Assembly (NCBI GenBank): GCA_046724685.1
Contig: JBKOXA010000074.1
Span: forward strand, 8,172 to 72,171
Direction: 5' to 3'
From: Acidobacteriota bacterium
GTDB lineage: Bacteria > Acidobacteriota > Terriglobia > Acidiferrales > UBA7541
DNA: 64,000 nt
Position 1 is the stretch's first letter, and every line of letters begins with the position of its first letter. The notes under the pieces are model-generated. The model was not told the origin of the DNA. It worked only from the letters and a program-made list of their open reading frames with translations, and did no database searches. The translations under genes were made by a program, and so were the position numbers. Shown here piece by piece: positions 23,079-43,632 of the stretch.

Positions 23079-24197
23079 ATGAATGAGCGTGACATTCGCT
23101 TCATGGAGCGCGCGCTCGAACTTGCGCGCAAGGGCGTCGGTCTGGCGAGCCCAAATCCCACCGTCGGCTGCATCATCGTCGGGCAAGGGGTTCACAGCGG
23201 CCAAATTGTCGGCGAAGGGTTTCATCAATATGACAGGCGCAATCACGCGGAAATTGTCGCTCTCGAAACCGCCGGAGAAAGAGCTCGCGGAGCGACAGCC
23301 TACGTCACGCTGGAGCCGTGCAACATCGCAGGGCGGACAGGTCCGTGTACCGAAGCCCTGATGAAGGCAGGGATCGCGCGTGTGGTCGCTGCGACGCAAG
23401 ACCCAAATCCCAAGGTGGCAGGACGTGGATTGGATGCATTGCGCGCCGCGGATATCATCGTTGATTCCGGGATTTGTGAATCCGAAGCGCAGCGCCTGAA
23501 TGACGGATTTGCCTGCTGGATCCGCACGGGCCGGCCGTTCGTCACGTTAAAATCCGCGATGACGCTGGACGGGCAGCTCACAATTGCCAATCAACGCAAA
23601 TCCAAAAAACGCGAATGGATCAGCTCCGAAGACTCCCGCACGGAAGTACAAAGGCTTCGCCACGGTTCGGACGCGCTGCTTACGGGCATCGGCACAATTC
23701 TCGCCGATGATCCGCTTCTCACCGACCGCAGCGGCATGCCGCGCAGGCGCCGTCTTTTGCGCGTCGTCCTCGACTCCAAGCTGCGCCTTTCGCCAAGTTC
23801 GCGAATCGTGAAATCCGCGGACAAGGACCTTCTGGTGTTCACCGCCGCCCCGCTCAAATCCGCGAAGGCTCTCAAACTGCAAGATGAAGGGGTTGAGATC
23901 GTGCAGGTTCGGGCGAAGCTCGGAATGCTTGACCTGAAAATGGTTCTGCGCGAACTCGGCGAGCGGCAGATTCTGAACGTATTGCTTGAAGCGGGGCCAC
24001 GTCTGAATGGCGCAACTCTGTCGGCGCAAGTTGTGGACCGGATATTTTTGTTTTACGCCGCGAAGCTAGCGGGCCACACCACAACTCCGTTCGCAGCGGG
24101 AGCCGCCGCAAGACTGGATTTACGGCAAATGGCGTTTCGCACTTTTGGCCCGGACTTTGCCGTGGATGCCCTGCTCCATAACCATTTCAATGCTTGA
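23079..24197 (+). CDS. ribD: Bifunctional riboflavin deaminase/reductase RibD
   Basis: SPNPTVG, HAE, TLEPC...GPC zinc motifs; KSAMTLDG and GIGTILADDPLLT reductase motifs. Confidence 0.95.
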   Translation: MNERDIRFMERALELARKGVGLASPNPTVGCIIVGQGVHSGQIVGEGFHQYDRRNHAEIVALETAGERARGATAYVTLEPCNIAGRTGPCTEALMKAGIARVVAATQDPNPKVAGRGLDALRAADIIVDSGICESEAQRLNDGFACWIRTGRPFVTLKSAMTLDGQLTIANQRKSKKREWISSEDSRTEVQRLRHGSDALLTGIGTILADDPLLTDRSGMPRRRRLLRVVLDSKLRLSPSSRIVKSADKDLLVFTAAPLKSAKALKLQDEGVEIVQVRAKLGMLDLKMVLRELGERQILNVLLEAGPRLNGATLSAQVVDRIFLFYAAKLAGHTTTPFAAGAAARLDLRQMAFRTFGPDFAVDALLHNHFNA

Positions 24198-31566: not shown

Positions 31567-32214
31567 ATGTTTACTGGCATCATCGAGCATCTCGGTACGA
31601 TTTCTCGCTTCGAAACGACTTCGAGTGACGGCAAACTCATCGTTCACGCGCCTTCGCTGGCGCGGCAGCTCGCAGTCTCCGCCAGCATCGCGGTTAATGG
31701 CTGCTGTCTGACGGTGGTTCATCATGATAACGAGAACTTTTCGGCTGATCTCTCGGGCGAAACACTTGCCAAGACGTCTTTTGCTTCTCTCAAGGCGGGA
31801 GTGCGGGTGAACCTCGAACAGCCTCTTACGGCAGGACGGGAATTTGGCGGTCATTTTGTGCTCGGCCATGTGGATGGCACGGCGCGAGTCGTTCACCTCA
31901 ACCCTGAAGGTGATAGCTGGCGTTATGGTGTGGAAATTCCACCGGATTTGGCGCGTTACGTAGTCTCGAAGGGCTCCATCACGATTGACGGAATCAGCCT
32001 CACTGTGGCCCGCTGGCAAGATCGGATTGCGGAAATCGCGGTGATTCCCTACACCTACGAACACACGAATATCCGCGATCGTGTTCCCGGCGATCAGGTC
32101 AATCTGGAGGCCGATATTTTGGGAAAATATATCGAGCGCTATCTGGGCCAGCGCGAATGGTCAATCGATTCGAGGCACCTTGGCGTGGACGACCTCATCC
32201 GCCAGGGCTTTTGA
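31567..32214 (+). CDS. ribE: Riboflavin synthase (alpha chain)
   Basis: MFTGII start, SIAVNGCCLTV, VNLEQPL, GGHFVLGHVDG, GSITIDGISLTV, VNLEADILGKY. Confidence 0.96.
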   Translation: MFTGIIEHLGTISRFETTSSDGKLIVHAPSLARQLAVSASIAVNGCCLTVVHHDNENFSADLSGETLAKTSFASLKAGVRVNLEQPLTAGREFGGHFVLGHVDGTARVVHLNPEGDSWRYGVEIPPDLARYVVSKGSITIDGISLTVARWQDRIAEIAVIPYTYEHTNIRDRVPGDQVNLEADILGKYIERYLGQREWSIDSRHLGVDDLIRQGF

Positions 32215-41313: not shown

Positions 41314-42192
41314 TTACTGTTTTGCTTTCTTGTCTTCCGTCGCGGCCTTGGCCGCCATGGTTGCCGCCGATTTCGGCTTCCAGAAGTCAGGGTCGGACTT
41401 GATCCACTCGTCCTCCACATAGCTCATCTTCGGGTTGTAAGCAAACAGTTGCGACTGGCTGGAATCCACGGAAGCTCCGAAAAGCTCGTCCATTTTTTTC
41501 CTCCCCTCTTCACCCATCGTCGTGGCAAGTTGCTTTTCCATCATGAAGCCGCGGTCGACTTCGGCGAGGGTCTTGCGGGCCGTTAGCAGCAGGAATGTGC
41601 CGTTGTCACCGCCAAAAGCCAGCTCGAACATTCCCCAATGAGCCTCGGGATCGGCCTTTCCGTACGCTTCCTTGGCCATCTTGACCAGCTCTTGCCACTC
41701 CTTGCTCTTTCCGCCACGAACGTGAAAGACCGTGACGTCCAAAAACCGAGTATGGGAGATGTCCGACAATGGCCTGAGACTCATCTCTTCGCGGAAATAG
41801 AAAACCGCCTGATCGATGTCGTCGAGCAATTCGCCGTCGGCAGCGCCGGCGCGGTCGAGGCTGGCCGCCAAGACGGCATTCTTTGCGATACTTTGATTGT
41901 CTTTTTCCCACGCCTCAAAGGACTCGTAGCGCGTCAGGAACAAAGCTCGCTGCTTTCCTGTCAGTGAGGTCATACCGATGTAGTGCGTGGGCCACTTAGC
42001 GCGAGCCATGGCTTGCACGAAGGCGCTTTCTGCCTTGTCGTGCACCGTCCCGGCCCTTCCGGGCTTGGTGTATTCGCGAGTGATTTGTAGAACCTTGGGA
42101 ATCGAGCTGCTGGGCTTTTCCTGTGCAGCTGTTATGCAGGTACAACAGGCGATGAATGATAAGCCGATGAGCGTAGTACGGAATGTGTTCAT
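41314..42192 (-). CDS. Exported hypothetical protein with two NIPSNAP/dimeric alpha-beta barrel-like halves
   Basis: Signal peptide ending ITAA-QE and internally duplicated patterns (QITREYTKPGR / DVTVFHVRGGK). Confidence 0.65.
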   Translation of the reverse strand: MNTFRTTLIGLSFIACCTCITAAQEKPSSSIPKVLQITREYTKPGRAGTVHDKAESAFVQAMARAKWPTHYIGMTSLTGKQRALFLTRYESFEAWEKDNQSIAKNAVLAASLDRAGAADGELLDDIDQAVFYFREEMSLRPLSDISHTRFLDVTVFHVRGGKSKEWQELVKMAKEAYGKADPEAHWGMFELAFGGDNGTFLLLTARKTLAEVDRGFMMEKQLATTMGEEGRKKMDELFGASVDSSQSQLFAYNPKMSYVEDEWIKSDPDFWKPKSAATMAAKAATEDKKAKQ

Positions 42193-42447: not shown

Positions 42448-43632
42448 ATGACCAATTTCAGCGCATCGCCTTTTTGTTCCGTTGAAGAAGCAGTCGAAGA
42501 GATTCGCAACGGCCGGATGATCGTCCTCGTCGACGACGAAGATCGCGAGAACGAAGGCGATCTGACCATGGCCGCCGAAAAAATTACGCCGGAAGCCATC
42601 AACTTCATGGCCAAGCACGGGCGTGGACTCATCTGCCTGACACTCACCGAACAGCGCTGTGATGAGCTCCATCTCCCGCTGATGTCGCCGATTAACACGT
42701 CCGTTCATGGCACGGCGTTCTGCGAAGCGATTGATGCGCGCGTTGGCGTAACTACGGGCATTAGCGCTTCGGACCGGGCCATAACTGTTCTTACTGCCAT
42801 TGACCCAAAAACCAAGCCACAGGACCTCGCCCGCCCTGGTCACTTATTTCCATTACGCGCGCGCAATGGCGGGGTTCTCGTGCGCGCGGGACAGACCGAA
42901 GCGAGCGTGGATGTCTCGCGCATCGCTGGACTCAACGATTCGGGCGTCATCTGCGAAATTATGAATGAAGACGGCACGATGTCTCGAGTGACGCAGCTCA
43001 TCGAATTTTGCCGCGAACACAACTTGAAAATGCTCACAGTCGCTGAGCTTATCCGCTACCGCATGCAGCATGAACGGTATGTTCGCCGCATCGCGGAAAC
43101 TGTGTTGCCCACCCGATTCGGTGACTTCCGCATGATTGCTTACGCCAGCGACGTGGATCACGATCAGCATGTTGCGCTCGTTCGAGGCGATCTCGATGGC
43201 GCGGAACCCGCACTGGTGCGAGTCCACTCCCACTGTCTGACCGGCGATGTTTTCGGATCAGCGGCTTGCGATTGTCACGAACTGGTTGCGCGCTCGCTTG
43301 CCGCGATCGCGGAGAAAGACCGTGGCGTTTTCCTCTATCTGCATCACACCGGCCGCGGCTTTGGTATCGAAGCGTCGGAAGAGCCCGGCATTCTTCCGCA
43401 GATTCATATTCACGCCCGGGGCCAGCTTGATCGCTCGCCTGCCCGCCAGCGGCTTGTTCAGCATGAAAGCGGCATCGGCGCGCAAATCCTGATCGATCTC
43501 GGATTGAAGGACATTCGCGTGCTCACCAACCATCCGAAGAAAGTCGTGGCCCTAGAAGGGTACGGCATCCGCATTTCCGACCAGGTACCCCTCCGTATCG
43601 AGCACCCAAAAGAAACTCATCAGCTCTTGTGA
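42448..43632 (+). CDS. ribB: 3,4-dihydroxy-2-butanone-4-phosphate synthase fused to a degenerate GTP cyclohydrolase II domain (RibBA/RibBX-like)
   Basis: RibB motifs [12 protein letters not shown] and [10 protein letters not shown]. The GCHII-like domain has [10 protein letters not shown]...CDC but lacks the EGR, AY and DxR catalytic segments. Confidence 0.88.

Follow-up and report, generated by a model that had tools for sequence, protein, structure and literature searches.

The 64-kb stretch of acidobacterial DNA analysed here (contig JBKOXA010000074.1; "the window" below, meaning the whole 64,000 nucleotides) carries a gene for a two-domain protein of riboflavin synthesis, in which RibB is fused to what appears to be a catalytically dead GTP cyclohydrolase II (GCHII). 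The gene, referred to as ribBX-like, occupies 42448..43632 on the forward (+) strand, encodes 394 amino acids (aa) and ends with a TGA stop at 43630..43632 (+). It was described through translation of its open reading frame (ORF), Pfam, NCBIfam and an AlphaFold2 model. The N-terminal part is the RibB domain, a DHBP synthase (DHBP standing for 3,4-dihydroxy-2-butanone 4-phosphate; residues 13-204; 42484..43059, +; PF00926, 276.5 bits). It is followed by a GCHII-derived domain, hereafter the X domain (residues 214-381; 43087..43590, +; PF00925, GTP_cyclohydro2, 159.5 bits). Alignment with the RibA of Escherichia coli delimits a kept zinc-site block within the X domain, R258-V-H260-S-H262-C263-L-T-G266-D267...C274-D-C276 (43219..43275, +), and the alignment tables delimit a His-rich segment in which the catalytic sequence has been replaced (residues 301-345; 43348..43482, +).

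Among the NCBIfam models, only that of the RibB domain (TIGR00506) reached its curated cut-off (242 vs 177.45 bits), and the RibB motif residues are invariant in a 68-sequence alignment. The X domain stayed below the cut-offs of TIGR00505 (RibA; 121 vs 205.85) and NF001591 (120 vs 148), and the 394-aa protein stayed below those of all RibBA equivalogs, the best scores being 468 vs 569 and 475.7 vs 764 (NF006803, NF006806). The PF00925 match covers profile positions 2-165 of 165, at a gathering score of 23.3.

Catalytic residues and the second RibA

Residues were compared in an alignment of the query protein with E. coli RibA (L004:4571-5161:-, an annotated K-12 record), 37 fusions and 34 stand-alone RibAs taken from genomes of this genus and order. 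A preliminary description of the locus had proposed a RibB fused to an apparently dead GCHII, resembling the proteins known as RibBX, and every substitution that it named is borne out by this alignment. The motif HSEC of E. coli reads HSHC in the query (E53 to H262), QEGR reads HTGR (Q91 to H300, E92 to T301), the NKIRAY segment is replaced (K101 to S310, Y105 to G314) and DERD reads VQHE (D126 to V337, R128 to H339). Further losses are Y130 to S341, N151 to H362 and R168 to Q379, and three residues, Q318-I-H320, are inserted after E. coli position 108. The query stops about 11 residues before the canonical tail Y182-L-x-T-K186-x-x-K189-M-G-H192. This tail is missing in all complete fusions of this kind (X-type) and present in complete canonical sequences, and none of the frames downstream of the TGA stop encodes a YLxTKxxKMGH tail. 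The change from HSEC to HSHC is real, yet it has no diagnostic value: HSQC occupies this place in 34/34 stand-alone RibAs of the genus and order, including the genome's own, and the replacement of E53 by histidine was dropped as a sign of inactivity.

The C-terminal domain by itself was searched exhaustively against 1.84 billion cluster representatives, and tabulation of the key residues yielded a near-invariant canonical GCHII signature across diverse proteins: R49, H51, C54, C65, C67, E92, R94, K101, Y105, D113, N118, D126, R128, Y130, N150-151, K154, Y182, K186, K189 and H192. The query keeps 7/19 signature residues, compared with 18-19/19 in canonical proteins from many phyla. A pooled comparison of 139 non-redundant canonical domains with 103 non-redundant X-type domains that retain the cysteines revealed that, of 59 positions conserved in at least 90% of canonical GCHII, the X-type keeps 20 and has lost 39. 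The two groups were partly defined by these same residues, and the informative positions are those outside the definition; the ones lost among them are Q70, I96, Q108, T114, V115, A117, L121 and G122. Tyr105 is said to hydrogen-bond the zinc-activated water for ring opening, Ren and colleagues having reportedly examined the roles of Y105 and R128 in 2005. Arg128 contacts the alpha-phosphate and has been linked to the release of pyrophosphate, and the catalytic zinc is held by the three cysteines (review PMC10366380).

The preliminary description had also argued that the organism needs another ribA, or a different first step of riboflavin synthesis, and the former is indeed present. The genome (3.79 Mb in 114 contigs, 94% complete) contains exactly two PF00925 matches, the ribBX-like gene and a gene on contig C81 (G000:C81:7346-7852; L001:1444-2088) that encodes a canonical stand-alone RibA of about 215 aa. 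The latter displays the full signature (19/19), including NKLRAY, DARD and YLQTKKKKMGH, and exceeds the cut-offs of both NF001591 (247 vs 148) and TIGR00505 (227 vs 206). Meanwhile, the fusion is the sole PF00926 match in the genome.

Could the fusion still be a working bifunctional RibBA with a divergent GCHII active site, the stand-alone RibA being redundant? The end-to-end match of the Pfam GCHII model speaks for it, as do the zinc ligands, R49 and K154 of the query and the JGI annotation of close homologues as bifunctional. Nevertheless, 12 of the 19 residues of a signature that is almost invariant across phyla are absent, with Y105, R128, D126, E92, K101 and the tail all gone, and the protein reaches none of the curated RibBA or RibA cut-offs. 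For a close homologue, the name given by NCBI is DHBP synthase only. In a survey of 91 sampled genomes of the class Terriglobia, each at least 90% complete, the low-scoring fusion was never the sole GCHII gene, whereas canonical RibBA does occur alone. Finally, the RibBX of Aeromonas salmonicida, which retains 4/16 active-site residues, complements ribB but not ribA (PMC10012899). We consider a working bifunctional enzyme very improbable and, since a protein with so few active-site residues fails in ribA complementation, conclude by analogy that the GCHII activity of the X domain has almost certainly been lost. With the JGI label "bifunctional RibBA" on the homologues, pathway reconstructions for these soil Acidobacteria would assign the opening step of riboflavin synthesis to the wrong gene.

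The zinc site and the role of the X domain

That the three zinc-ligand cysteines are intact had already been remarked in the preliminary description, and this proved to be a distinguishing feature of the class. The triad C-x10-C-D-C of the query (C263, C274, C276) corresponds to E. coli Cys54/65/67. It is part of a kept block equivalent to E. coli R49, H51, C54, G57, D58, C65 and C67, whose columns are invariant in the 68-sequence alignment. These residues, the triad among them, are invariant in every complete X-type fusion sampled in the genus, the order and the class, with the exception of L041, in which an 8-residue gap covers the second and third cysteines. The 20 canonical positions kept in the X-type are G16, F18, A34, G38, L47, R49, H51, C54, G57, D58, C65, C67, G84, Y88, G95, A134, L137, L140, N150 and P152, and those that are informative, being outside the group definition, are R49, H51, G57, D58 and N150. 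In addition, X-type domain cores are 2.7-fold enriched in histidine (7.3 residues per core vs 2.7 in canonical ones), with histidines acquired at E. coli positions 53, 90/91 and 151 and in the replaced loop (QIHIH, VHHHDH).

The structure 6mnz, identified by its title as the two-domain RibBX of Acinetobacter baumannii, has no cysteine at the triad positions, yet it folds. The fold does not need the cysteines, and yet they are invariant in the X-type fusions sampled across the class, although the X domain has diverged by about 50% and 39 other positions that were once invariant have changed. We infer from this that the metal site of the X domain has a function: it would sense a metal or the redox state, or belong to a pocket that binds a ligand, and would tune the output of DHBP synthase. 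Simple structural retention is not an obvious explanation for cysteines with this pattern of conservation.

Selection was estimated with the Nei-Gojobori method over 22 genes at the level of the genus. The ratio of nonsynonymous to synonymous substitution rates (dN/dS) was 0.05 for the RibB domain, 0.073 for the whole X domain, 0.072 for its zinc half, 0.085 for the replaced segment, 0.082 for the C-terminal part of the X domain and, in the same genomes, 0.074 for the stand-alone RibA, all of these values being approximate since dS (1.3-1.9) is near saturation. The dN/dS of the X domain equals that of the stand-alone RibA. The domain is therefore constrained like an essential enzyme and is functional, a conclusion that is robust despite the high dS. 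That it should be a decaying, functionless remnant carried along by an essential RibB is hardly credible. The loss of many catalytic residues, together with a replaced segment that varies between families and is modelled with low confidence, would be expected of such a remnant. A dN/dS of 0.07-0.09 in every part of the domain, as in RibA, would not. Furthermore, none of the X-type fusions retrieved from the class has a stop or frameshift in the domain, which is of full length in each, and conservation reaches at least 90% at the Cys triad and some 20 further positions against an overall divergence of 50%.

This constraint, equal to that on RibA, would also be compatible with a new zinc-dependent catalysis, in which the X domain binds zinc, and perhaps a purine nucleotide or a pathway intermediate, and performs a different hydrolytic step. 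At least 90% of X-type domains retain the Cys triad, R49, H51, G57, D58, N150 and P152, and T92, F96 and H151 are now shared by about 75-80% of them, which is not free drift. Small changes in GCHII paralogues of Streptomyces are reported to alter the product, in work attributed to Spoonamore and colleagues (2006). In E. coli GCHII the zinc serves to open the ring and is not required for the release of pyrophosphate (Kaiser et al. 2002, cited after PMC10366380). Against this stands the loss of 39 of 59 conserved positions, among them Y105, the residue that holds the zinc-bound water in place, and of the entire tail. Moreover, families differ in the segment that faces the former active site, and little order is predicted there, which is unusual for a catalytic pocket, and the pathway has no missing step to fill (ribA, ribD, ribE, ribH and ribB are all present). 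Hence, a new catalytic function appears unlikely.

The AlphaFold2 model, built on the 68-sequence alignment, had a mean predicted local distance difference test score (pLDDT) of 86 and a predicted template modelling score (pTM) of 0.77. Its closest folds in Foldseek were 4i14 (RibA2 of Mycobacterium tuberculosis) and 6mnz (E 1.3e-37), the E. coli RibA structure 2bz0 having an E of 3.8e-14. In sequence, the best PDB match of the query was 4i14 (E 4.7e-105), and 6mnz was also among the best. The bifunctional RibBA of M. tuberculosis (RibA2/Rv1415, 4i14) shares with the query the two-domain architecture, the fold and the N-terminal half of GCHII with its zinc site. Unlike it, the query lacks E92, K101, Y105, D126, R128, Y130, N151, R168 and the tail, and remains below the equivalog cut-offs. 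E. coli RibA (2bz0/2bz1) is homologous to the X domain (E 1.3e-29) and has in common with it Cys54/65/67, R49, H51, G57, D58, N150, P152 and K154, whereas Y105, R128 and 37 other conserved positions are lost in the query, which is truncated before Y182.

The closest parallel in function would be the proteobacterial RibBX, known from Shewanella oneidensis through a study reportedly made by Brutinel and colleagues in 2013. As in the query, whose activities are read from sequence, these proteins consist of an active RibB and a GCHII-homologous domain devoid of the catalytic residues. A separate ribA supplies the GCHII activity, the domain is retained by selection, and the protein is often misannotated as a bifunctional RibBA. 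In S. oneidensis the RibX domain is reported to regulate or scaffold RibB, as cited in PMC10012899, and in Rhodopseudomonas palustris single RibX substitutions change the phenotype (bioRxiv 10.1101/2025.05.05.652280). The query differs in that it has all three cysteines, while the described RibBX proteins lack the zinc-binding residues (PMC10012899; 6mnz alignment). It also comes from the Acidobacteriota (Terriglobia) and not from the Proteobacteria, its gene is monocistronic and outside a rib operon, its tail is deleted and its replaced loop is rich in histidine. By sequence, it is a RibBX-like protein that has most of the defining features of RibBX, what is new being the retained zinc ligands and the different phylum. 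A search combining RibBA or GCHII with Acidobacteria returned no paper in the literature library that was covered.

Based on these findings, we postulate that the fusion acts as the DHBP synthase of this organism, in the ribulose-5-phosphate branch of riboflavin synthesis. The GCHII-derived domain would no longer make the pyrimidine precursor, a task left to the separate canonical RibA. By analogy with the RibBX of Shewanella and Rhodopseudomonas, the X domain would instead be a regulatory or scaffolding module for the attached RibB, and the kept Cys3 site, the surrounding R49, H51, G57, D58, N150 and P152 and the gained histidines would together form a functional metal site. A RibBX-like pseudoenzyme domain that regulates or scaffolds RibB and has kept its metal site in working order is, in our judgement, the probable explanation of the data. 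The regulatory or zinc-sensing function suggested in the preliminary description would be consistent with the purifying selection and the enrichment in histidine.

Besides the saturation of dS mentioned above, several points weigh against this explanation. Both the loss of GCHII activity and the binding of zinc are deduced from sequence, and the Cys3 site could have been kept in this lineage only for local stability. Residues ~301-345 have low AlphaFold confidence, with pLDDT < 50 at 325-340, and this segment varies between families; the replaced segment may be a flexible linker with no specific ligand. In addition, an alignment of the 250 nt upstream of the gene in nine close relatives (39% column identity) displayed no conserved box; a Zur box, for example, would have tied the gene to zinc. 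This is a weak negative, as the starts may be out of register.

What a regulatory X domain might respond to is a more tentative matter. Possibly, although we would not count it as the expected outcome, the Cys3 site and H262, H300, H320/H322, H339 and H362 form a sensor through which zinc or redox status, or else the amount of a guanine nucleotide or of a pyrimidine intermediate, would govern the output of DHBP synthase. No flavin mononucleotide (FMN) riboswitch (RF00050) was detected in the 64-kb window or in the whole 94%-complete genome, which makes control of flavin synthesis at the level of the enzyme plausible. If the sensor interpretation is true, a dead enzyme would have been turned into an allosteric control of flavin synthesis in a class of soil bacteria of which at least this genome has no FMN riboswitch.

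RibBX domains are known to modulate RibB, and in this lineage the metal site and some of the old substrate pocket have outlasted the catalytic residues. It may thus represent a natural intermediate form and a tractable system to investigate what RibX senses. The arrangement itself is familiar and is no new kind of system; the class-wide zinc site in an apparently dead domain is the one feature that merits follow-up by specialists. These findings also indicate that GCHII domains in RibBA fusions have lost catalytic residues outside the Proteobacteria too, with a different set of residues surviving.

Distribution and origin in Terriglobia

The X domains of named relatives (Acidobacteriota subdivision 2, Ca. 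Acidoferrum/Acidoferrales, class Terriglobia) are 84-89% identical to that of the query. Across 80 named loci, X-type and canonical domains separate cleanly by the label of the record, with two exceptions. The X-type (6-9/19 signature residues, full Cys triad) occurs in nearly all records labelled Terriglobia, Acidobacteriaceae, Terriglobales, Bryobacteraceae, Solibacteraceae, Sulfotelmatobacter or Acidoferrales, and also in one record labelled Eisenbacteria (L121; label as given). The canonical state (18-19/19) was found in Vicinamibacterales, in L138 (labelled Acidobacteriota only) and in all other phyla. Two X-type records, L077 (DATMMW010000011.1, "Candidatus Dormiibacterota") and L079 (DATMKS010000051.1, "Verrucomicrobiia"), are members of the genus of the window, and their NCBI labels look wrong; their X domains are 84-86% identical to that of the query.

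Among 41 relatives within the genus and order, almost every genome has a single fusion, scoring 151-178 bits, in addition to a single stand-alone RibA of 195-221 bits. The class, taken as Terriglobia from the labels of the records, shows this pairing of an X-type fusion with a stand-alone RibA in most of its families. In the survey of the class, at least two GCHII genes were found in 77/91 genomes, the listed rows being a stand-alone RibA and a lower-scoring fusion. Exactly one was found in 8/91, always a canonical RibBA (405-430 aa, 238-245 bits; families f7, f10 and f13), and these genomes carry no second GCHII copy. The remaining 6/91, all of family f7, have no GCHII match. These tallies include three unpublished genomes, G110 and G126 in the survey and G031 among the 41 relatives, whose sequences were not used; without them, the survey counts are 76 genomes with at least two genes and 7 with one. 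Sequences fetched from the survey added ten X-type fusions (6-10/19, Cys triad kept), and seven single-copy fusions proved canonical (19/19).

In all Terriglobia X-types, position 53 is H or R, position 92 is T or S, position 168 is Q, K101 and Y105 are lost and the tail is deleted; position 151 is H or R in every one except a single sequence. Other positions vary between lineages. Position 128 is H in the genus of the window and R in most other families, position 94 retains R in this genus and is P in sister families, and X-types of family f6 still have N118, R128 and Y130. This pattern fits a single ancestral inactivation followed by lineage-specific drift.

A tree was built on the RibB domain alone (198 columns), so that the columns of the trait itself were avoided; its deep branches are poorly resolved. 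Constraining the 57 Terriglobia X-type fusions to one clade gave a likelihood 3.6 units above that of the free search, with a p value of 0.58 in the approximately unbiased test (p-AU), and P0163 was nested among X-types of Bryobacterales. A single origin of the Terriglobia X-types is compatible with these data and not proven by them. The tree held just two representatives without the cysteines, of unassigned origin (P0243 and P0192, the former absent from the final test), and did not include the named proteobacterial RibBX. Meanwhile, the X domain scored 143 bits against the canonical RibA2 of M. tuberculosis (4i14) and 42 bits against the X domain of A. baumannii (6mnz). Because it is nearer to canonical GCHII than to the latter, and because the described RibBX are proteobacterial, an origin independent of the proteobacterial RibBX appears likely.

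Four other full-length fusions (P0179, P0214, P0251 and P0255; source organisms not assigned) combine a degenerate GCHII domain with the Cys triad. In the RibB-only tree they adjoin canonical RibBAs of Gemmatimonadaceae or of Desulfobacterota-like genomes, on long branches and with unsure placement. There are hints here that the GCHII domain has degenerated repeatedly and independently.

The survey also revealed other variations in GCHII gene content. The six genomes of family f7 that have no GCHII match (G053, G061, G070, G079, G102 and G114) are among 11 genomes of this family that are at least 95% complete, the other five having a single canonical RibBA; these six may be auxotrophic for riboflavin or begin its synthesis with another reaction. 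Family f6 displays a third GCHII gene with the full signature (19/19) in L166 (G125:C21) and L167 (G052:C7), and this gene is also found in G101, G107, G119, G094 and G086. Its frame measures 313-350 aa when trimmed and 490-540 aa from stop to stop, which indicates an extra region beyond the GCHII domain. Within the genus of the window, the genome of L028 (G014:C149:23400-25300) has three GCHII genes, namely an X-type fusion, a stand-alone RibA and a canonical RibBA (423-aa frame, 254 bits, 19/19). This extra RibBA may be a horizontal acquisition or a contaminant of the genome bin.

Genomic neighbourhood

Each of the main enzymes of the riboflavin pathway has a gene in this genome, but the genes are scattered. 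In the window, ribD, ribE and the ribBX-like gene are 8-10 kb apart. The deaminase/reductase gene ribD (23079..24197, +; Pfam RibD_C and dCMP_cyt_deam_1) lies about 18 kb upstream of the ribBX-like gene and is not in an operon with it, and the riboflavin synthase gene ribE (31567..32214, +; two Lum_binding repeats in Pfam) lies about 10 kb upstream. The gene ribH is located on contig C65, and ribA, as described above, on C81.

According to the ORF listing, the ribBX-like gene is monocistronic, both of its neighbours being oppositely oriented. A scan for promoters and terminators around it found nothing convincing on the + strand. The divergent neighbour, a 292-aa ORF at 41314..42192 on the reverse (-) strand, had no Pfam match at E <= 0.001, and its hydrophobic N-terminus resembles a signal peptide.

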